Positions 3,304-60,898 are shown, counted from the first letter of the stretch. The stretch is 64,000 bases of DNA from Escherichia coli (GCF_045037415.1 NZ_CP173438.1); one strand, 5' to 3'. Notes: generated by a model from the sequence alone, not told the origin. Numbers and translations are program-made.

Positions 3304-4734
3304 ATGCCAGATTTTTTCTCCTTTATTAACAGCGTCCTTTGGGGTTCGGTAATGATTTACCTGCTCTTCGGCGCAGGTTGTTGGTTCACTTTTCGCACCG
3401 GATTTGTGCAGTTTCGCTACATCCGCCAGTTTGGCAAAAGTCTTAAAAATAGCATTCATCCACAGCCAGGCGGTTTAACCTCATTTCAGTCATTGTGTAC
3501 CAGTCTTGCAGCGCGCGTGGGTAGCGGCAACCTGGCCGGCGTTGCGCTGGCAATTACCGCCGGTGGACCTGGAGCCGTCTTCTGGATGTGGGTTGCCGCA
3601 TTTATCGGCATGGCGACCTCGTTTGCCGAATGTTCCCTCGCACAGCTTTATAAAGAACGTGATGCCAATGGGCAGTTTCGTGGCGGACCGGCATGGTATA
3701 TGGCGCGCGGGCTGGGGATGCGCTGGATGGGCGTTCTGTTCGCCGTCTTTTTGCTCATCGCCTACGGCATAATTTTCAGCGGAGTTCAGGCGAACGCCGT
3801 TGCGCGAGCCCTGAGTTTTTCTTTTGATTTTCCCCCGCTGGTGACAGGTATTATTCTCGCTGTCTTTGCTATGCTGGCGATCACTCGCGGTCTTCATGGC
3901 GTCGCCCGGCTCATGCAGGGGTTTGTCCCGTTGATGGCGATAATCTGGGTACTGACCAGCCTGGTGATTTGCGTAATGAATATCGGGCAACTTCCCCACG
4001 TCATTTGGTCTATTTTTGAGAGTGCTTTTGGCTGGCAGGAAGCGGCAGGCGGCGCGGCGGGATATACCTTAAGCCAGGCGATTACTAACGGTTTTCAGCG
4101 CAGTATGTTTTCCAATGAGGCGGGAATGGGGTCGACGCCAAACGCGGCAGCGGCAGCTGCGTCCTGGCCTCCGCATCCGGCAGCGCAAGGAATTGTCCAG
4201 ATGATTGGCATTTTTATCGACACCCTGGTCATCTGTACGGCAAGCGCCATGCTGATATTACTGGCGGGTAACGGCACAACCTACATGCCGCTGGAAGGTA
4301 TTCAGCTTATCCAGAAGGCGATGCGGGTGCTAATGGGTTCCTGGGGTGCGGAGTTTGTTACCCTCGTGGTTATTCTGTTTGCCTTCAGCTCCATCGTTGC
4401 CAACTACATTTATGCCGAAAACAATCTCTTCTTTTTACGCCTGAACACCCCTAAAGCGATCTGGTGTCTGCGGATCTGCACCTTCGCAACGGTCATCGGC
4501 GGCACCTTGCTAAGTCTTCCGCTGATGTGGCAACTGGCAGATATCATTATGGCCTGCATGGCTATTACCAATTTGACCGCCATATTACTGCTCTCGCCTG
4601 TGGTTCATACCATTGCCAGTGATTATCTACGCCAGCGTAAACTCGGCGTGCGCCCGGTGTTTGATCCGTTGCGTTATCCGGAGATCGGTCGCCAGCTTTC
4701 TCCGGACGCGTGGGATGATGTTTCGCAGGAGTAA
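3304..4734 (+). CDS. yaaJ: Alanine/glycine:cation symporter (AGCS) family transporter, 476 aa
   Basis: ORF 3304..4734; polytopic membrane protein with AGCS-family features; synteny. Confidence 0.9.
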   Translation: MPDFFSFINSVLWGSVMIYLLFGAGCWFTFRTGFVQFRYIRQFGKSLKNSIHPQPGGLTSFQSLCTSLAARVGSGNLAGVALAITAGGPGAVFWMWVAAFIGMATSFAECSLAQLYKERDANGQFRGGPAWYMARGLGMRWMGVLFAVFLLIAYGIIFSGVQANAVARALSFSFDFPPLVTGIILAVFAMLAITRGLHGVARLMQGFVPLMAIIWVLTSLVICVMNIGQLPHVIWSIFESAFGWQEAAGGAAGYTLSQAITNGFQRSMFSNEAGMGSTPNAAAAAASWPPHPAAQGIVQMIGIFIDTLVICTASAMLILLAGNGTTYMPLEGIQLIQKAMRVLMGSWGAEFVTLVVILFAFSSIVANYIYAENNLFFLRLNTPKAIWCLRICTFATVIGGTLLSLPLMWQLADIIMACMAITNLTAILLLSPVVHTIASDYLRQRKLGVRPVFDPLRYPEIGRQLSPDAWDDVSQE

Positions 4735-17281: not shown

Positions 17282-17491
17282 ATTGTTACCATTTTTATCT
17301 ATTACACGAGCAATTAGTTCGTCACGGTAAATAACATATTGATTAAGAACAAAATCTCAATACTTTTATTTCCGTCAAGCCCTAAAACATACTCGACTAA
17401 GAAAAAAACACTGAATGCTAAAACAGCAAAAAATGCTATTATCCAATTACCTGATGTCAGGTGCTCGTTGTTGAAAGGATGAGGATATTTT

Positions 17492-18361
17492 ATGGATCAG
17501 GCCGGCATTATTCGCGACCTTTTAATCTGGCTGGAAGGTCATCTGGATCAGCCCCTGTCGCTCGACAATGTAGCGGCGAAAGCAGGTTATTCCAAGTGGC
17601 ACTTACAGAGAATGTTTAAAGATGTCACTGGCCATGCTATTGGCGCGTATATTCGTGCTCGTCGTTTGTCGAAATCGGCGGTCGCACTACGCCTGACTGC
17701 GCGTCCGATTCTGGACATCGCGCTGCAATACCGCTTCGACTCTCAACAGACATTTACCCGCGCATTCAAGAAGCAGTTTGCCCAGACTCCTGCACTTTAC
17801 CGCCGTTCTCCTGAATGGAGCGCCTTTGGTATTCGCCCGCCGCTGCGTCTGGGTGAATTCACTATGCCAGAGCACAAATTTGTCACCCTGGAAGATACGC
17901 CGCTGATTGGTGTTACCCAGAGCTACTCCTGTTCGCTGGAGCAAATCTCTGATTTCCGCCATGAAATGCGCTACCAGTTCTGGCACGATTTTCTCGGCAA
18001 CGCGCCGACCATTCCGCCGGTGCTCTACGGCCTGAATGAAACGCGTCCGAGTCAGGATAAAGACGATGAACAAGAGGTATTCTATACCACCGCGTTAGCC
18101 CAGGATCAGGCAGATGGCTATGTACTGACGGGGCATCCGGTGATGCTGCAGGGCGGCGAATATGTGATGTTTACCTATGAAGGTCTGGGAACCGGCGTGC
18201 AGGAGTTTATCCTGACGGTATATGGAACATGCATGCCAATGCTCAACCTGACGCGCCGTAAAGGTCAGGATATTGAGCGATACTACCCGGCAGAAGATGC
18301 CAAAGCGGGAGATCGCCCAATTAATCTGCGCTGTGAACTGCTGATTCCGATCCGTCGTTAA
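17492..18361 (+). CDS. rob: AraC/XylS-family transcriptional activator Rob (right origin-binding protein), 289 aa
   Basis: ORF 17492..18361; N-terminal AraC-type HTH, C-terminal GyrI-like domain. Confidence 0.95.
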   Translation: MDQAGIIRDLLIWLEGHLDQPLSLDNVAAKAGYSKWHLQRMFKDVTGHAIGAYIRARRLSKSAVALRLTARPILDIALQYRFDSQQTFTRAFKKQFAQTPALYRRSPEWSAFGIRPPLRLGEFTMPEHKFVTLEDTPLIGVTQSYSCSLEQISDFRHEMRYQFWHDFLGNAPTIPPVLYGLNETRPSQDKDDEQEVFYTTALAQDQADGYVLTGHPVMLQGGEYVMFTYEGLGTGVQEFILTVYGTCMPMLNLTRRKGQDIERYYPAEDAKAGDRPINLRCELLIPIRR

Positions 18362-19005
18362 CGCTGCAGCTCATCTAATGCAGGGGCGTCCAGATGCGAG
18401 ATGTCCCCTGCGGTTTCAACCACCCAGCCAGACGCCAGCCACAGGCTTTCCTGATAATCCACGCGCGAAATAGAACAGTTACGCAGACGTAAGCGGCGCT
18501 CTGCCCATGCTGGTAATCCGAGAATCGTACTCACCAGGCATCCCAGTGCAATACCATGGCTCACCAGTAGCGGTCGGCTTCCCTGCGGTAAGTCCCGGCA
18601 AGATTCCAGTGCCGCATTAACGCGATCGCTGAGCTCCTGCATTGACTCGCCTTCAGGAATACGCCCGTCAACGGTGCCATTGACCAGTTGCCGACGCCAG
18701 TTCTCTTCTTCTTCGGTGAGTGAATCGATATTTCTTGTTTCCAGTACACCCATATTTAATTCACGCAGGCGAGAATCAAATATGATGTCACAGCCGCAGG
18801 CCTGGGCGATGATTTCCGCCGTGCGCCGGGTGCGTCCTAAATCGCTACTGATGATATGCGTAATGCCAAGCTCTTTGGCACGGGTTGCCACCTGCATCGC
18901 CTGTTGCTCACCTTTGGCGGTCAGCGGGCTGTCAGACTGGCCCTGAATACGTCGCTCGGCGTTCCACTGCGTTTCACCGTGGCGGACTAGGTATACCTGT
19001 AACAT
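18358..19005 (-). CDS. gpmB: Histidine-phosphatase-family phosphoglycerate mutase GpmB, 215 aa
   Basis: ORF 18358..19005; catalytic RHGETQWN motif; stop codon overlaps rob stop. Confidence 0.93.
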   Translation of the reverse strand: MLQVYLVRHGETQWNAERRIQGQSDSPLTAKGEQQAMQVATRAKELGITHIISSDLGRTRRTAEIIAQACGCDIIFDSRLRELNMGVLETRNIDSLTEEEENWRRQLVNGTVDGRIPEGESMQELSDRVNAALESCRDLPQGSRPLLVSHGIALGCLVSTILGLPAWAERRLRLRNCSISRVDYQESLWLASGWVVETAGDISHLDAPALDELQR

Positions 19006-19044
19006 GCTTTTTTTCCGTATACTGCTGTAACGTTAATTTTCTGA

Positions 19045-19584
<540 letters not shown>

Positions 19585-19587
19585 TTA

Positions 19588-19658
19588 GGCGTTCACGCCG
19601 CATCCGGCATTCGGTGCACGATGCCTGATGCGACGCTGACGCATCTTATCAGGCCTAC
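19588..19658. repeat. REP/BIME element (two inverted REP units) in yjjX-trpR intergenic region
   Basis: Contains cgccgcatccggca and gatgcctgatgcgacgc..atcaggcctac, matching the REP consensus seen elsewhere in the window. Confidence 0.75.
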
Positions 19659-28440: not shown

Positions 28441-29457
28441 ATGTCCACATTACGCCTGCTCATCTCTGACTCTTACGACCCGTGGTTTAACCTGGCGGTA
28501 GAGGAGTGTATTTTTCGCCAGATGCCCGCCACGCAGCGCGTTCTGTTTCTCTGGCGCAATGCCGACACGGTAGTGATTGGTCGTGCGCAGAACCCGTGGA
28601 AAGAGTGTAATACCCGGCGGATGGAAGAAGATAACGTCCGCCTGGCGCGGCGCAGTAGCGGTGGCGGCGCGGTGTTCCACGATCTCGGCAATACCTGTTT
28701 TACCTTTATGGCTGGCAAGCCGGAGTACGATAAAACTATCTCCACGTCGATTGTGCTCAATGCGCTGAACGCGCTTGGCGTCAGCGCCGAAGCTTCCGGG
28801 CGTAACGATCTGGTGGTGAAAACCGCCGAAGGCGACCGCAAAGTCTCAGGCTCGGCCTATCGCGAAACCAAAGATCGTGGCTTCCACCACGGCACTTTGC
28901 TGCTCAATGCCGACCTTAGCCGCCTGGCAAACTATCTCAATCCGGATAAAAAGAAACTGGCGGCGAAAGGCATTACCTCAGTGCGTTCCCGCGTGACCAA
29001 TCTGACCGAATTGCTACCGGGGATCACCCATGAGCAGGTTTGCGAGGCCATAACCGAGGCCTTTTTCGCCCATTATGGCGAGCGCGTGGAAGCGGAAATC
29101 ATCTCCCCGGACAAAACGCCAGACTTGCCAAACTTCGCCGAAACCTTTGCCCGCCAGAGTAGCTGGGAATGGAACTTCGGTCAGGCTCCGGCATTCTCGC
29201 ATCTGCTGGATGAACGCTTTACCTGGGGCGGCGTGGAACTGCATTTCGACGTTGAAAAAGGCCATATCACCCGCGCCCAGGTGTTTACCGACAGTCTCAA
29301 CCCCGCGCCGCTGGAAGCCCTCGCCGGGCGACTGCAAGGCTGTCTGTACCGCGCGGATATGCTGCAACAGGAGTGCGAAGCGCTGCTGGTTGACTTCCAG
29401 GAACAGGAAAAAGAGCTACGGGAGTTGTCGGCATGGATGGCAGGGGCGGTGCGGTAG
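28441..29457 (+). CDS. lplA: Lipoate-protein ligase A, 338 aa
   Basis: ORF 28441..29457; motif [21 protein letters not shown]. Confidence 0.95.
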
Positions 29458-30789
29458 TTACCCACCCATGCGGGTAACTTTCTCTTCGATTTGCCGGATT
29501 TTTTCCGGCATTTCTTGCGCAATGTGGCGAAACGCCTCGCTGATACGCGGATCTCTGGCGACCGTTTGCCAGAACTGCTGCGCCAGCGGGATCGCCGTTA
29601 ACCATGCGCTTTTACTGATGTTAAGATCAAACTTCACCTCAATGGCAGCATCACGCAGCATTCCGGCGCTGTTTGGCGCATAGGCCATCGGCAGCATGTC
29701 GTAGACGGGTGTCAGCGCAAATGGTGGTTCAGATAAATAAAATGATAAATTGCCTGCGTGCATATCGCTGTTGGCGATAAGTCGCCCAAACGCCCAGATC
29801 ACTTCTGTTTGCGCCACGCTCTGGTGAGTGACAAGTTGTTGCTCACACAAATGCCGCATTGCCTCCGGCCACGATCCCGGAGAAGAGATAAACTCACTTT
29901 GCACCGCCTCCAGCGACACAATGGGCAAGCGACCATCGTTACCTTTGCAGTCAAAGCGTTCCGCTTCCAGGAATACCTGCCTGTTACTTGTTACAAGCAC
30001 CGTTGACTCGATGGCGTGGATCCCGCCGTCACGCAGGATTTGCGCGGCAATAGATTCAGCAATTAGCAGGTCCCCCCAACGTTGGCTGACTGCGGTTTGC
30101 TGTGGCACGGTGAATTTCACCAACACATGTTTATTGCCTGACGGCGTTTGTGCATAGCAGGTAAATTTTGGCTGCTCGCCGCCCGCAGAAGAACCCACAA
30201 TTTCTCCAGCCAGAGCATCGCTTGCCAACTGTTCGTAACGGGTGAGTTTTTGATCCAAAGGAATTTCCGCAGGGCGTTGTGCAGTAATCCATCGCTGATA
30301 ATTCCCCTCCCCGACCAACCAACCGCCAGTATATTCACCGTTAAATACGGTCAGGGCGTAGAGCACATCTTCTTCCTGCCAGAGACGTATATCATCAGTC
30401 AGATTCAGTTGCGCGGCTAACTTTCTGCCCCACGCGCGCCCTAAAAAGCCCTGCGGTCGGAGATCGGTCAAATACCAGGGCAAACCATCAAACCACTGTT
30501 CGTCGCCATCTGCGCCTGTTACCAGACAACTTCCCTGTGGCCAGCACAACCGGATGTCGGCGAATTTATGCGCCTTTCCGGCATCGTCCACCCGCCAGAC
30601 GGGAATACGCTCAATTCCGCGATAAGGACGCAGCAGTACATATCGCGTTGCCCGTGCTTTACCAAAGCGAATCACCCGATTTTCTCTGGCAACAAGGCGT
30701 GAGAACGTCGCCTGACTGATTGCCAGACGCTGGCGCAATTCCGGGGCAGAACGCGGCCCTTGCAGTAAAAGATCGGTCAGTTCGCTCAT
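29458..30789 (-). CDS. yjjJ: HipA-like Ser/Thr kinase with N-terminal HTH domain (YjjJ), 443 aa
   Basis: ORF 29458..30789; HipA-like catalytic motif SDMHAGNLSF and nucleotide-binding GGEQPKF; N-terminal HTH-like segment; stop abuts lplA stop. Confidence 0.85.
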   Translation of the reverse strand: MSELTDLLLQGPRSAPELRQRLAISQATFSRLVARENRVIRFGKARATRYVLLRPYRGIERIPVWRVDDAGKAHKFADIRLCWPQGSCLVTGADGDEQWFDGLPWYLTDLRPQGFLGRAWGRKLAAQLNLTDDIRLWQEEDVLYALTVFNGEYTGGWLVGEGNYQRWITAQRPAEIPLDQKLTRYEQLASDALAGEIVGSSAGGEQPKFTCYAQTPSGNKHVLVKFTVPQQTAVSQRWGDLLIAESIAAQILRDGGIHAIESTVLVTSNRQVFLEAERFDCKGNDGRLPIVSLEAVQSEFISSPGSWPEAMRHLCEQQLVTHQSVAQTEVIWAFGRLIANSDMHAGNLSFYLSEPPFALTPVYDMLPMAYAPNSAGMLRDAAIEVKFDLNISKSAWLTAIPLAQQFWQTVARDPRISEAFRHIAQEMPEKIRQIEEKVTRMGG

Positions 30790-30955
30790 TAATGAATAGA
30801 TTCGTGAATAGATACTTGAATAGATTTATTAACATATTTCACTGAAAAGTATAGCGAAAATATTCAAGCTGGAGAGATAAATGAATAAATACTAAAAAGC
30901 CGGAGCAGTCTCCCACTCCGGCTTCACACGACAATCGCCTTTCAGCAAAACACAA

Positions 30956-34406: not shown

Positions 34407-35186
34407 TTAGTAGCTGCTGGCGCTCTTACCGTCGCCGTGGCCCAGAGCTTTCAGCAGGCTTGCCAGCAAGCTGGAAGCACCAAAGCGGTAGTGACGCGCA
34501 TCAGCCCAGTCAGCACCGAACAGTTCATCTGCAATGGCGAGATATTTCTGCGCATCTTCCGCAGTACGCACGCCGCCTGCCGGTTTGAAACCAACGGTTT
34601 TTTCTACGCCCATATCGCGGATCACTTCCATCATGATGCGCGCGCTTTCCGGCGTCGCATTCACAGCCACTTTACCGGTAGAGGTTTTGATGAAGTCAGC
34701 ACCCGCTTTGATGGAGATTTCAGACGCTTTACGGATCAGCGCTTCGTCTTTCAGTTCGCCGGTTTCAATAATCACTTTCAGCAGTACGTTCGCCGCAGCG
34801 CAAGCCTCTTTACAGGCTTTCACCAGGTCAAAACCAACCTGCTCGTTACCTGCCATCAGCGCGCGGTACGGGAACACCACGTCAACTTCATCGGCACCGT
34901 AGGCGATTGCCGCACGGGTTTCTGCCAGCGCGATTTCGATGTCGTCGTTACCGTGTGGGAAGTTAGTTACCGTAGCGATACGGATTTCCGGGGTGCCCTG
35001 CTCTTTCAGAGTTTTGCGAGCAATCGGGATAAAGCGAGGATAGATACAGATAGCGGCGGTATTGCCGACCGGAGTTTTGGCCTGATGACACAGTGCGATC
35101 ACTTTCTCATCGGTGTCGTCGTCATTCAGGGTGGTCAGGTCCATCAATTTCAGTGCACGCAGGCTGCTTGCTTTCAGATCAGTCAT
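34407..35186 (-). CDS. deoC: Deoxyribose-phosphate aldolase DeoC, 259 aa (start [12 protein letters not shown])
   Basis: ORF 34407..35210; ATG at 35184-35186 preceded by AGGAGAA SD. Confidence 0.96.
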
Positions 35187-37831: not shown

Positions 37832-38335
37832 TGCCGGATACGGCCTACGGTTCGGCACAGACTTGTAGGCATGATAAGACGCGACAAGCGTCGCATCAGG
37901 CATTATGCGCCGACTGCCGGATGCGGCGTGAACGCCTTATCCGGCCTACGGTTCGGCACAGACTTGTAGGCATGATAAGACGCGTCAGCGTCGCATCAGG
38001 CATTGTGCGCCAACTGCCGGATGCGGCGTGAACGCCTTATCCGGCCTACGGTTCGGCACAGACTTGTAGGCATGATAAGACGCGTCAAGCGTCGCATCAG
38101 GCATTGTGCGCCAACTGCCGGATGCGGCGTGAACGCCTTATCCGGCCTACGGTTCGGCACAAACCTGTAGGCATGATAAGACGCGTCAAGCGTCGCATCA
38201 GGCATTGTGCGCCAACTGCCGGATGCGGCGTGAACGCCTTATCCGGCCTACGGTTCGGCACAAACCTGTAGGCATGATAAGACGCGACAAGCGTCGCATC
38301 AGGCATTATGCGCCGACTGCCGGATGCTGCCTACG
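37832..38335. repeat. BIME/REP tandem array: about 5 copies of a 100-101 bp unit, each built from two inverted REP sequences
   Basis: Direct repetition of gccggatgcggcgtgaacgccttatccggcctacggttcggcaca(g/a)ac(t/c)tgtaggcatgataagacgcg(a/t)caagcgtcgcatcaggcatt(g/a)tgcgcc with period 100-101 bp between convergent yjjW and yjjV. Confidence 0.9.
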
Positions 38336-56692: not shown

Positions 56693-57607
56693 ATGAGTCG
56701 TTCACAAAATTTACGCCACAATGTGATTAACCAGGTCATTGATGATATGGCGCGGGGTCATATCCCTTCCCCACTTCCATCGCAAAGTGCGCTGGCGGAA
56801 ATGTACAACATCAGCCGCACTACAGTGCGTCATATTCTCAGCCACTTACGCGAATGCGGCGTCTTAACGCAGGTTGGAAACGACTATGTTATTGCGCGTA
56901 AACCTGACCATGATGACGGTTTCGCCTGTACTACCGCTTCAATGAGTGAACAAAACAAAGTGTTTGAGCAGGCTTTTTTCACGATGATAAACCAGCGCCA
57001 GTTACGCCCAGGGGAAACTTTTTCTGAACTGCAACTGGCTCGGGCCGCGGGTGTCAGCCCGGTGGTTGTAAGAGAATATCTTTTAAAATTCGGCCGTTAT
57101 AATCTTATTCAAAGCGAAAAGCGCGGCCAGTGGAGCATGAAGCAATTCGATCAATCCTACGCCGAGCAGCTGTTTGAGCTACGCGAAATGCTCGAAACAC
57201 ATTCACTTCAGCACTTTCTCAACCTGCCTGATCATGATCCCCGCTGGCTGCAGGCGAAAACCATGCTCGAACGTCACAGGCTACTGCGTGACAACATCGG
57301 CAATAGCTTTCGCATGTTCTCGCAACTTGACAGAGATTTTCACTCCTTACTGCTTTCAGCTGCCGACAATATCTTTTTTGAACAATCGCTTGAGATCATA
57401 TCAGTCATCTTTCATTTTCACTATCAATGGGACGAAAGCGATCTTAAACAGCGCAATATCATTGCCGTCGATGAGCATATGACCATTCTCAGCGCTCTGA
57501 TTTGCCGCAGTGACCTTGATGCCACCCTTGCGCTCCGTAACCATTTGAATTCAGCTAAACAATCAATGATTCGATCCATTAATGAGAACATGCGTTATGC
57601 TCATTAA
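56693..57607 (+). CDS. lgoR: GntR/FadR-family transcriptional regulator LgoR, 304 aa
   Basis: ORF 56693..57607; N-terminal GntR HTH; divergent from lgoD. Confidence 0.9.
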   Translation: MSRSQNLRHNVINQVIDDMARGHIPSPLPSQSALAEMYNISRTTVRHILSHLRECGVLTQVGNDYVIARKPDHDDGFACTTASMSEQNKVFEQAFFTMINQRQLRPGETFSELQLARAAGVSPVVVREYLLKFGRYNLIQSEKRGQWSMKQFDQSYAEQLFELREMLETHSLQHFLNLPDHDPRWLQAKTMLERHRLLRDNIGNSFRMFSQLDRDFHSLLLSAADNIFFEQSLEIISVIFHFHYQWDESDLKQRNIIAVDEHMTILSALICRSDLDATLALRNHLNSAKQSMIRSINENMRYAH

Positions 57608-57823
57608 GTACGGATTAAAAACAGCAAACTATTAGCGGGTGCACGGTTTTATCAAAAGATAAATACCGGAAAATTCCCGCTTACCTATGCTCACAATCAG
57701 TCGACTAAAAATGTTTTTTTGTGAGCGGTAGTAAAGTCCTAAAACTTTAACCTGCCGTTAATGTCAACCTTGCGTAATGCACAATTACGTAAACAATTAA
57801 AATTATAAATACAGGAGTCCGGC

Positions 57824-59185
57824 GTGGAAAAAGAAAATATCACCCTCGATCCGCGTTCTTCATTTACTCCATCTTCGTCGGCAGATATTCCCGTGCCACC
57901 AGATGGATTAGTTCAACGCAGTACCCGAATTAAACGCATTCAAACCACCGCCATGTTGTTATTATTTTTTGCGGCGGTAATCAATTATCTCGACCGCAGT
58001 TCGCTGTCGGTAGCAAATTTAACGATTCGTGAAGAATTGGGATTAAGTGCCACCGAAATCGGCGCTTTGCTCTCCGTGTTTTCACTCGCTTACGGGATTG
58101 CGCAACTTCCTTGCGGCCCACTATTGGATCGTAAAGGCCCGCGCCTGATGTTGGGACTGGGGATGTTCTTCTGGTCACTGTTCCAGGCAATGTCTGGCAT
58201 GGTGCACAGCTTTACGCAGTTCGTGTTGGTGCGTATCGGTATGGGAATTGGTGAAGCGCCGATGAACCCATGCGGTGTAAAAGTCATTAACGACTGGTTC
58301 AACATCAAAGAGCGCGGACGCCCGATGGGCTTCTTCAACGCAGCTTCTACCATTGGCGTTGCCGTAAGCCCACCGATTCTGGCGGCGATGATGCTGGTGA
58401 TGGGCTGGCGCGGGATGTTTATTACCATTGGTGTACTGGGGATTTTTCTCGCCATCGGCTGGTATATGCTCTATCGCAACCGCGAGCACGTAGAACTGAC
58501 TGCCGTTGAACAAGCTTATCTCAATGCAGGTAGCGTCAATGCCCGCCGAGATCCGCTCAGTTTTGCCGAATGGCGCAGCTTGTTCCGTAACCGCACAATG
58601 TGGGGAATGATGCTCGGATTCAGTGGCATCAACTACACTGCGTGGCTGTATCTGGCCTGGCTTCCTGGTTACCTGCAAACAGCCTATAACCTGGATTTAA
58701 AAAGCACAGGGTTGATGGCGGCTATCCCTTTCCTGTTTGGGGCTGCCGGGATGCTGGTCAACGGTTACGTTACTGACTGGCTGGTCAAAGGGGGAATGGC
58801 TCCGATTAAAAGCCGTAAGATCTGCATTATTGCCGGGATGTTCTGTTCTGCCGCCTTTACGCTGGTCGTACCGCAAGCGACAACATCCATGACAGCGGTT
58901 CTGCTGATTGGTATGGCACTGTTCTGTATTCACTTTGCCGGAACATCCTGCTGGGGCTTGATCCACGTCGCAGTTGCTTCTCGCATGACTGCGTCGGTGG
59001 GCAGTATCCAGAACTTTGCCAGCTTCATCTGCGCCTCTTTTGCGCCGATCATTACTGGTTTTATTGTTGATACCACCCACTCATTCCGTCTGGCACTAAT
59101 CATCTGCGGTTGCGTCACCGCAGCGGGGGCACTGGCGTACATCTTCCTGGTTCGTCAGCCGATCAACGACCCACGGAAAGATTAA
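57824..59185 (+). CDS. lgoT: MFS L-galactonate:H+ symporter LgoT, 453 aa, GTG start
   Basis: ORF 57824..59185; GTG preceded by CAGGAG SD; 12-TM MFS protein. Confidence 0.9.
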   Translation: MEKENITLDPRSSFTPSSSADIPVPPDGLVQRSTRIKRIQTTAMLLLFFAAVINYLDRSSLSVANLTIREELGLSATEIGALLSVFSLAYGIAQLPCGPLLDRKGPRLMLGLGMFFWSLFQAMSGMVHSFTQFVLVRIGMGIGEAPMNPCGVKVINDWFNIKERGRPMGFFNAASTIGVAVSPPILAAMMLVMGWRGMFITIGVLGIFLAIGWYMLYRNREHVELTAVEQAYLNAGSVNARRDPLSFAEWRSLFRNRTMWGMMLGFSGINYTAWLYLAWLPGYLQTAYNLDLKSTGLMAAIPFLFGAAGMLVNGYVTDWLVKGGMAPIKSRKICIIAGMFCSAAFTLVVPQATTSMTAVLLIGMALFCIHFAGTSCWGLIHVAVASRMTASVGSIQNFASFICASFAPIITGFIVDTTHSFRLALIICGCVTAAGALAYIFLVRQPINDPRKD

Positions 59186-59192
59186 TCTCCCT

Positions 59193-59227
59193 ATGCCCGA
59201 TAACATTTTGCTTATCGGGCATTTTTA
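59193..59227. terminator. Bidirectional intrinsic terminator between convergent lgoT and tsr (atgcccgataa...ttatcgggcat + ttttat)
   Basis: 11-bp perfect stem with T-tract. Confidence 0.75.
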
Positions 59228-59233
59228 TGGCGA

Positions 59234-60898
59234 TTAAAACGTTTCCCAGTTCTCACCGCTATCTGCCACGGCCATTTTACGCGGCGCAGCTGGCATCACG
59301 GTTTTTACCACAGCCGATGTTTCACGCTGCTGTTGCTGCTGTTGCTGAATCCGGAACACTGCCACTGCTTCGGTCAGGCGACTGGCCTGCTCTTCCAGCG
59401 CGGCGGCGGCGGCGGCAGATTCTTCCACCAGCGCGGCGTTCTGTTGAGTTACCCGGTCCATCTCAGCAACCGCTAAGCCAACCTGATCGATACCACGGCT
59501 CTGCTCATCAGAAGCAGAAGCAATTTCGCCCATAATGTCCGTCACGCGGGTCACAGCACTGACAATCTCCGCCATTGTTTCCCCGGCGCTTTCGACCAGC
59601 GTAGAGCCAACATCCACTTTCCCCACCGAGTCTTCAATCAGGCTTTTAATTTCACGAGCCGCCTGGGCGCTACGCTGGGCCAGATTACGCACTTCTCCCG
59701 CAACCACCGCAAAACCACGTCCTTGCTCACCCGCACGCGCTGCTTCAACCGCCGCGTTCAAAGCCAGAATATTGGTCTGGAAGGCAATGCCGTCAATTAC
59801 GCTGATAATATCGGCGATTTTCTGCGAACTGGTGGAGATATCACGCATAGTCTGCACCACGTTATCTACCACTTTGCCGCCGCGTTGCGCCGTTTCAGAA
59901 GCACTTAACGCCAGGTGGCTGGCCTGGCGCGCATTCTCGGCGTTCTGTTTCACCGTTGCGGTCAGTTGCTCCATGCTGGCTGCCGTCTCTTCCAGCGAAG
60001 CAGCCTGTTGCTCGGTGCGCGAAGAGAGATCGTTATTGCCGGTAGCGATTTCGCTGGCACCGCTATAGATGGCATTGGCCCCGTTGCGCACATCACCGAC
60101 GGTACGCATCAGCTCTCCCTGCATATGGCGCAAACTCTCTGCCAGTTGCCCCATCTCATTAGAGCCATCCACCTCAATCGGTTTCACCAGATCGCCGCCT
60201 GCAATATGACGAATGCTGTCAATCAGGCGATTCATTGGCGCTACCAGCGAGGCTTTAATACCGAACCAGACGGCGAAGATGACCGCCAGTACGACGATCA
60301 TCACGCCCACCAGAATCCACATCGCCTGGCTGTAGGAGGCATTGTTATCGCTGACGGCGATATCATGGAGCCGATCGTTTTGTTCCATGTAAGCCACATA
60401 CTGCTTCTCGAAACCGTCCTGATATCCCTGAGTCGGCTGATCAAAGAACTCGTTGATTTTGCCTGCACCTAACAGTTGGATCAGCTCCGCCAGCGCATTG
60501 TGATAAATATCGTAATTACGTTTGATCTCTGCCGCTGCGGCGGTGCTCTGACGCGGGTCACGCGGCAACGCTTCGTAATCCGCCCAGTTTTTTTCCGCCT
60601 GTTTCAGCGAAATACTGGCACTCTGCATCAGCTCAGCAACGGTTGAACCGCTACCAATATTATTCTGATCCATCATGTAGCGGATACCCGCGCGGTTGAG
60701 GGTGTTACGCGTCTGCAACAACGCGACCCAGCTGCCATTCAGCGTGGATTGCTGCTGGCGAATGGTTTGTAAAACAGTGAAATTTTCTTTGTCATTCTTT
60801 AAGGCATTAAAGAACAGACCGCCTGATGTCAGTTGTAAAAGGCCAAAAACGGCCAAAACCAGCAGTAAGCTGGTCACAATTTTGATACGTTTTAACAT
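59234..60898 (-). CDS. tsr: Methyl-accepting chemotaxis protein I (serine sensor) Tsr, 554 aa, C-terminal NWETF
   Basis: ORF 59234..60898; MCP signalling domain, methylation sites, C-terminal pentapeptide NWETF; 7-residue polyQ tract before the tether. Confidence 0.95.

Follow-up and report, generated by a model that had tools for sequence, protein, structure and literature searches.

The genes rob and gpmB, and likewise lplA and yjjJ, meet tail to tail with no spacer in the 64,000-nucleotide stretch of Escherichia coli DNA analysed here (the window; NZ_CP173438.1). Both are probably ordinary junctions, with transcript 3' ends displaced into the coding sequence of the neighbour and formed there through the action of Rho; the displacement would arise because no spacer exists. 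At rob/gpmB the arrangement is probably held in place by selection on both protein ends. Published bicyclomycin experiments in K-12 show that transcripts of rob, lplA and yjjJ continue into RNA antisense to the neighbouring gene and are stopped by Rho. Much of this was already known: both junctions are annotated, the class of overlap has been described, the pairs have been catalogued and the Rho-dependent ending of the read-through is recorded in genome-wide tables. The present analysis makes small additions, namely a survey finding the rob/gpmB overlap in 73 of 79 species, the patchy occurrence of yjjJ, and a covarying hairpin just beyond the rob stop codon.

The rob gene (robA; K-12 b4396) occupies positions 17492 to 18361 on the plus strand and encodes 289 amino acids, ending in TAA at 18359-18361. 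The gpmB gene (ytjC) runs from 18358 to 19005 on the minus strand, encodes 215 amino acids and ends in a TAA read from 18360 down to 18358, the reverse complement of TTA at 18358-18360. According to both the ORF list and the RefSeq annotation (100% identity), the two reading frames overlap by 4 bp, tail to tail on opposite strands, and the TTAA tetramer at 18358-18361 holds both stop codons. The sequence at 18350-18369 is ATCCGTCGTTAACGCTGCAG, which in the rob frame reads ...CGT CGT TAA CGC..., and because Rob and GpmB both end in Arg (CGT) the tetramer lies within an 8-bp palindrome, CGTTAACG. From 17300 to 19100 the window and E. coli SK1144 are 100% identical, and of 5426 complete E. coli genomes 5420 carry this stretch. 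The geometry is unchanged in K-12 MG1655, with ytjC at 4633797..4634444 and rob at 4634441..4635310; the window is oriented as the reverse complement of the K-12 sequence.

At the second junction, lplA (28441..29457, plus strand, 338 amino acids; ORFs and annotation) ends in TAG at 29455-29457, and yjjJ (29458..30789, minus strand, 443 amino acids), also termed hipH and encoding a homologue of the HipA-family kinase toxins, ends in a TAA read from 29460 down to 29458. Here the stop codons are adjacent (TAG|TTA), with a gap of 0 and no base in common. K-12 MG1655 is alike in this respect, the hipH interval running up to 4623100 and the lplA interval running on from 4623101. In the RefSeq annotation of SK1144 the ends of both pairs fall exactly where they do in the window. 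The initial annotation had described stop codons shared within a palindromic TTAA for rob (plus) and gpmB (minus), and abutting genes at 29455-29460 for lplA and yjjJ; sequence, ORFs, RefSeq and the K-12 annotation agree with it on both counts, down to the names and coordinates.

Convergent 4-bp overlaps between stop codons, using the tetramers CTAA, TTAA, CTAG or TTAG (YTAR), were described by Lillo and Krakauer (2007, PMC2174442), who found that the length distribution of convergent overlaps jumps at 4 bp. The rob/gpmB junction is an exact instance of this class, whereas lplA/yjjJ abuts in the window without overlapping. The number of convergent overlaps in E. coli has been put at 58 (PMC2174442) and at 75 (Huvet and Stumpf 2014, PMC4161906). 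The part of the window identical to the annotated SK1144 genome, positions 1-35148, contains seven convergent junctions with gaps of 34, 39, 59, -4, 78, 120 and 0 nt, two of which therefore lack a spacer. The statistics were restricted to this part, and use of the SK1144 annotation for the entire window was abandoned, since identity ends at 35148. The zero-spacer arrangement at both junctions is not beyond chance.

The overlap at rob/gpmB is nevertheless persistent. Eighty loci carrying Rob relatives of 75-99% identity were examined, one per species, and both stop codons could be located in 79. Of these 79 Enterobacteriaceae species, 73 retain the 4-bp overlap, and a count from the resulting table gives 62 with TTAA, four with CTAA, two with TTAG and five with CTAG. 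Across the 79 rob ends, positions 2 and 3 of the tetramer are invariant, position 1 is only ever T or C and position 4 only A or G, so that the variation seen is exactly the set of changes that preserve both stops. The protein ends are conserved too, Rob terminating in P(I/V)RR and GpmB in ALDELQR. The tetramer probably persists because nearly any change in its four bases would destroy at least one stop codon. From these alignments, what holds the overlap in place appears to be selection on the pair of stop codons and on both C-termini, and not selection for overlap itself.

The exceptions point the same way, in that the overlap seems dispensable where a mutation happens to preserve both stops. 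In three lineages a zero gap has arisen by duplication of the tetramer (TTAACTAA, TTAATTAA and CTAGTTAA), and in two Buttiauxella a palindromic insert of 135-146 bp lies between intact rob and gpmB stop codons. This insert is predicted to fold into a long hairpin (-65 kcal/mol) and is a member of a dispersed repeat present in about 10 copies per E. coli genome; its core matches the ERIC/IRU element. An apparent overlap of 41 nt in Kluyvera genomosp. 3 was set aside, as it results from a frameshift in gpmB brought about by deletion of 1 nt.

The history of the lplA/yjjJ junction is different. The neighbourhood of LplA was sampled in eight genera. In four of them, Klebsiella, Pseudescherichia, Pluralibacter and Cronobacter, the gene directly facing lplA is deoD, with 63-168 nt between the two; in Atlantibacter lplA faces a K+ channel gene, and in Salmonella salamae fimbrial-type genes follow it. 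Only Buttiauxella and Cedecea among the eight have a HipA_C gene against lplA; it is absent from the other six. In these two genera the junction does use a YTAR tetramer, as a 4-bp overlap of TTAG in Buttiauxella and CTAA in Cedecea, and the C-terminus of the HipA_C protein is unlike that of E. coli. In all three genera where it is found, yjjJ/hipH lies hard against lplA. The gene is thus an accessory one, a patchy occupant of the lplA-deoD spacer. As yjjJ is missing beside lplA in six of the eight genera, the pairing is not ancient, and by this comparison of gene orders the junction is younger than that of rob and gpmB.

Where the transcripts end has been mapped in K-12, a strain other than that of the window, by Adams et al. 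(2021, PMC7815308), who located regions of Rho termination by DirectRNA-seq with and without bicyclomycin. Three entries from Supplementary file 2 of that work were placed on the window by local alignment; as the regions were derived from 800-nt coverage windows, the positions that follow are coarse. The region for the rob transcript is centred on window position 18581 (plus strand; K-12 4634221, minus strand), antisense to ytjC/gpmB and 220 nt past the rob stop, with a score of 5.02 (p = 3.9e-19). The yjjJ-strand transcript has its region centred on 29034 (minus; K-12 4623524, plus), antisense to lplA and 424 nt past the yjjJ stop (score 3.56, p = 1.8e-8). The third, a weak entry, belongs to the lplA-strand transcript and is centred on 29786 (plus; K-12 4622772, minus), antisense to yjjJ and 329 nt past the lplA stop (score 2.66, p = 7.9e-5). 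Without bicyclomycin, coverage at the ytjC-antisense region drops from 228 to 49; in its presence the values are 164 and 177. The gpmB strand has no Rho entry in Supplementary file 2. Thus the expectation in the initial annotation that each transcript must extend into the antisense of its neighbour is upheld in K-12 for three of the four genes, rob, lplA and yjjJ. Antisense sites form the largest class of Rho regions (51.5%) in the same study; Rho suppression of antisense RNA is also cited there.

Mapping of 3' ends had been proposed as a check for termination inside the coding sequences ahead of the junctions. The curated Term-seq list of PMC7815308 (K-12, three growth conditions) contains no 3' end across K-12 4622xxx-4634xxx, and no discrete end at or before either junction. 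None of rob, gpmB, lplA and yjjJ is present in the TERMITe tables. A strong Term-seq 3' end inside rob, at window position 17700, was considered as a site of termination before the junction and rejected, since coverage upstream of it (108) is lower than coverage downstream (230) and it was scored as not Rho-dependent. The further claim that there can be no terminators between the genes holds as far as the missing spacer is concerned, but does not hold for termination as such, the signals sitting inside the coding sequence of the neighbour.

The composition of the RNA beyond the stop codons fits with Rho loading. A C-rich, G-poor tract, a candidate rut site, lies at 18413-18491 on the plus strand, right after the hairpin that follows rob, with C at 0.33 and G at 0.19 and a C/G ratio of 1.6-1.7, which ranks near the 90th-95th percentile for the window. 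Another candidate, at 29380-29457 on the minus strand, forms the first 78 nt past the yjjJ stop and is more extreme (C 0.42, G 0.18), its C/G ratio of 2.4 exceeding the 99th percentile of the window. In composition scans the C/G ratio is 1.3-1.7 across about 130 nt of the rob transcript past its stop and reaches 2.2 at +131 in the gpmB transcript, and is weaker, at 1.0-1.4, in the lplA transcript. By composition, therefore, C-rich, G-poor RNA is present upstream of the termination zones, as is typical of a Rho-dependent terminator. The proposed sequence of events is that the ribosome would depart at the stop codon, leaving the RNA beyond it untranslated; the C-rich, G-poor tracts would then permit Rho to load and to release the polymerase. 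In the K-12 bicyclomycin data, the transcripts of rob, lplA and yjjJ extend 200-450 nt into antisense RNA before Rho stops them.

It is also conceivable that intrinsic terminators written within the neighbouring coding sequence do most of the work, since, as Lillo and Krakauer (PMC2174442) pointed out, any Rho-independent terminator at such an overlap must sit inside the partner; among the E. coli genes that take part in convergent overlaps, about 20% are predicted to have one there. Pattern scanning and folding identified two matches to a G+C-rich stem followed by a U tract in the lplA transcript. Hairpin 1 (29456-29479, plus strand) begins inside the lplA stop codon and has the arms AGUUACCC and GGGUAACU followed by UUCUCUUCGAUUU; in K-12 it is present as a variant with a shifted mismatch. 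Hairpin 2 (29492-29510, plus strand), inside the yjjJ coding sequence, is UGCCGGA-UUUUU-UCCGGCA followed by UUUCUU and is identical in K-12. The lplA-sense RNA folds better here than shuffled sequences do (z = -2.2), and both hairpins are plausible candidates for weak intrinsic terminators. Terminator-like matches near lplA/yjjJ are not enriched, however, with five observed against 3.9 +/- 1.9 in shuffles, and neither hairpin coincides with a 3' end in the curated K-12 Term-seq list of PMC7815308. For these two reasons their designation as proven terminators was dropped. Canonical terminators at rob/gpmB were likewise discarded, a consensus scan finding none near the junction and overall counts in line with those of shuffles. 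A conserved hairpin, with GUUUC after it, does follow rob, but just three U residues come after its stem, and it too lacks a curated 3' end. Moreover, read-through that is sensitive to bicyclomycin implies that many polymerases pass the hairpin sites. It is therefore unlikely that intrinsic termination accounts for most of the 3' ends, and Rho-dependent stopping within the neighbour remains the preferred explanation.

The hairpin beyond rob lies at 18379-18412, that is 18-51 nt past the rob stop and within the last 18 codons of gpmB, and has 12 pairs with a folding energy of about -18 kcal/mol in a single-sequence fold. RNAalifold on 74 aligned sequences recovers the core stem, GCAGGGG/CCCCUGC, at 18380-18386 and 18405-18411. 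When RNAalifold was run in 50-nt sliding windows along the rob-gpmB alignment on both strands, this hairpin was the best among 590 windows, at -11.6 against a mean of -1.2 (sd 2.1), and the top 15 windows held no conserved structure past the gpmB stop, in the 3' end of rob. The hairpin is kept in species in which rob and gpmB have become separated.

Counts of base pairs across the alignment suggest that the stem is maintained. Over the 12 pairs, 88.5% of cells are paired; shuffles give 84.9 +/- 0.4%, and sliding the partners brings the figure down to 41-58%. Cells with double changes number 46, against 10.2 +/- 7.5 in shuffles, and none of 500 shuffles reaches 46; several of these double changes recur in unrelated genera. 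Five pairs covary, a modest signal given that 47 of 500 shuffles match this count and 15 of 500 match the number of pair types. Two of the covarying pairs, 31/58 and 34/55, were mapped by hand and fall at third positions of gpmB codons where changes are synonymous, linking Pro (CCN) to Ala (GCN) and Ala (GCN) to Gly (GGN). Five of the 12 pairs are invariant and are probably fixed by the conserved amino acids, and correlated drift in GC3 could mimic some of the A-U to G-C changes.

An attempt to assign the hairpin to one strand by wobble counts (G-U versus A-C) was abandoned, as pairing is nearly equal in the rob sense (88.5%) and the gpmB sense (88.9%). A role in the rob mRNA is tentatively favoured because the hairpin precedes the gpmB stop codon, where a 3' barrier would give gpmB mRNA without a stop. 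Beyond the stem the rob transcript continues with GGUUUCAACCACCC, which hardly amounts to a U tract, and the C-rich tract comes next; folding and composition together thus give a stable stem that lacks a U-rich tract and has a candidate rut site directly downstream. This recalls an arrangement reported by Dar and Sorek (2018, PMC6061677), in which Rho-dependent mRNAs end at stable stem-loops that no U tract follows; the stem-loops guard the mRNAs against PNPase and RNase II, and rut sites are located a short way downstream. With that layout rob shares the hairpin without a U tract, the C-rich tract and a zone of bicyclomycin sensitivity roughly 170 nt beyond. It differs in that the rob apparatus lies on the antisense strand of the last 75 or so codons of gpmB, so that the hairpin varies at synonymous sites of gpmB only, and in that the PMC7815308 list has no steady-state 3' end at the hairpin. 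The absence from that curated K-12 Term-seq list of an end just past the hairpin (around K-12 4634385-4634390, minus strand) is a weak negative, which argues against a dominant stable end there. By analogy, then, it is quite possible, although we put this forward tentatively, that the hairpin acts in the rob mRNA as a protective 3' structure, in which case it would probably serve as an exonuclease barrier that sets and stabilizes the mature 3' end.

A broader and slightly more speculative proposal is that this stretch of DNA is dual-coding. The last 18 codons of gpmB may be synonymously constrained since the opposite strand must fold as the 3' hairpin of an abundant rob mRNA, with stop codon, hairpin, rut site and Rho zone forming one unit, maintained across the Enterobacteriaceae and running antisense through gpmB.

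A stem-loop that adjoins the boundary of two convergent genes and can form on both strands is also reminiscent of bidirectional termination (Ju et al. 2019, Wang et al. 2022; bioRxiv 10.1101/2022.10.23.513370), in which head-on collisions between RNA polymerases, positioned by such a structure, would end both transcripts. That class has been called Rho-independent, but of the four transcripts considered here three respond to bicyclomycin in K-12. The hairpin is upstream of the gpmB stop, so that gpmB transcripts ending at it would be non-stop mRNAs, and collisions require both genes to be busy. Nor is the stem-loop expected of a bidirectional intrinsic terminator, lying between the stop codons and flanked by an A tract and a U tract, to be found: the junctions lack a spacer, and the hairpins that do occur sit within a single coding sequence and have neither an A nor a U tract beside them. 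Collision is accordingly a very improbable source of these 3' ends, more so than intrinsic termination, and the preferred reading continues to be that Rho ends the transcripts within the neighbouring gene.

Both pairs have been classed as excludons, and it might be supposed that the overlap is retained for mutual repression, between rob and gpmB and between lplA and hipH, with the antisense 3' tails acting by transcriptional interference and by RNase III cleavage of the duplex. In Table 1 of the ExcludonFinder paper (Sanmartin et al. 2025, PMC12288877), ytjC-rob and yjjJ-lplA are named as overlapping transcription units; they belong to the 165 convergent excludons reported for MG1655, and the calls were made in 50% or more of 58 RNA-seq samples. 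The tail-to-tail arrangement of rob and gpmB is widely conserved, as described above, and the rob read-through in K-12 is real (PMC7815308). However, a call based on coverage is nearly automatic for these pairs, because their coding sequences already touch, and the listing says nothing about their regulation. Working excludons are defined by mutually exclusive expression and RNase III processing, and no reciprocal expression, RNase III cleavage or duplex processing specific to either pair was found in the literature. Two stop codons suffice to explain the conservation of the tetramer; rob and gpmB have been separated naturally several times with neither gene lost; Rho confines the overlap to a few hundred nucleotides; and yjjJ is missing from the locus in most of the genera sampled. 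Retention for mutual repression is for these reasons doubtful, about as improbable as a dominant role for intrinsic terminators. The evidence instead suggests that transcript overlap at both pairs is a by-product of geometry, although the complementary 3' tails could cause some mutual interference.

The two junctions matter little beyond housekeeping. The survey of rob and gpmB does show cleanly how evolution can lock a stop tetramer that two genes share, and how the lock is now and then released, either when the tetramer is duplicated or when a mobile repeat inserts. From the covarying hairpin it would seem, in addition, that RNA 3'-end signals can constrain synonymous sites in an adjoining gene. 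Where gpmB (ytjC) is to be recoded or deleted, the hairpin should be borne in mind, as levels of Rob might change.

The arrangement in which the convergent genes rob and gpmB both terminate in a TTAA tetramer (18358-18361 in the window) differs in several other Enterobacteriaceae. In three lineages, represented by Buttiauxella gaviniae, B. noackiae and Pluralibacter gergoviae (survey loci L060, L062 and L081, at position ~3867-3874; sequences TTAACTAA, TTAATTAA and CTAGTTAA), the tetramer is duplicated so that the two stops no longer overlap, leaving a gap of zero and both protein ends unchanged. Two further Buttiauxella, B. brennerae and Buttiauxella sp. B2, carry a palindromic dispersed repeat of 135-146 bp placed precisely between the two stop codons (L054:3871-4016 and L066:3871-4005), and the 3' end of rob is partly duplicated next to it. 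This repeat, which we take to be ERIC/IRU-like, has a folding energy of -65 kcal/mol and is found at ~10 copies per E. coli genome with 60-80% identity. Kluyvera genomosp. 3 (L047) appears to have a 41-nt rob/gpmB overlap, because a 1-nt deletion in gpmB (CCCC to CCC, ~3830-3920) shifts the frame; the deletion falls within the 3' arm of the stem-loop conserved in the last gpmB codons. Either gpmB is a pseudogene here or the frameshift is a sequencing error.

Term-seq of K-12 grown in LB has revealed a very strong 3' end at 4635102 (-), at OD 0.4 and 2.0 (PMC7815308, Supplementary files 1 and 3), which corresponds to window position 17700 (+), 208 nt into the rob ORF. The study scored this end as not Rho-dependent; upstream of it, coverage is lower than downstream (PMC7815308). 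The fold around position 17700 is unremarkable (z = +0.4), and this 3' end may represent a stable processing product.

At the second convergent pair without a spacer, lplA/yjjJ, the window is 91% identical to K-12 across the 81 nt extending ~40 nt to each side of the junction (29417-29497); the other mapped segments of the region, of 76-81 nt, are mostly 96-100% identical between the two strains. The differences are synonymous changes clustered in the final lplA codons, together with two that shift the position of a mismatch within hairpin 1, the stem-loop following the lplA stop (29456-29479). A strong intrinsic terminator of deoD, with a U tract after its 13-bp stem (30896-30925, minus strand), coincides with a Term-seq 3' end at K-12 4621665. 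As it lies upstream of yjjJ, yjjJ sits between the deoD terminator and lplA; in genera without yjjJ, lplA is faced directly by deoD.

Compared with the annotated strain SK1144, the window is identical through 35148, from 35149 identity falls to 98.5% and 96.3%, additional REP copies are present near 38 kb, and 57579-59234 spans ~1.65 kb where SK1144 has ~5.3 kb carrying Na+/H+ antiporter and TRAP transporter genes. Together, these sequence differences indicate that the window derives from a mosaic relative of SK1144.

Neither rob/gpmB nor lplA/yjjJ contains REP elements, as judged by matches to the REP-derived Rfam family naRNA4 in the window. One copy is found in the yjjX/trpR convergent spacer (19578-19655, plus strand) and four in tandem in the yjjW/yjjV spacer (37868-38248, minus strand); thus, at convergent junctions elsewhere in the window, REP elements pad the spacer.
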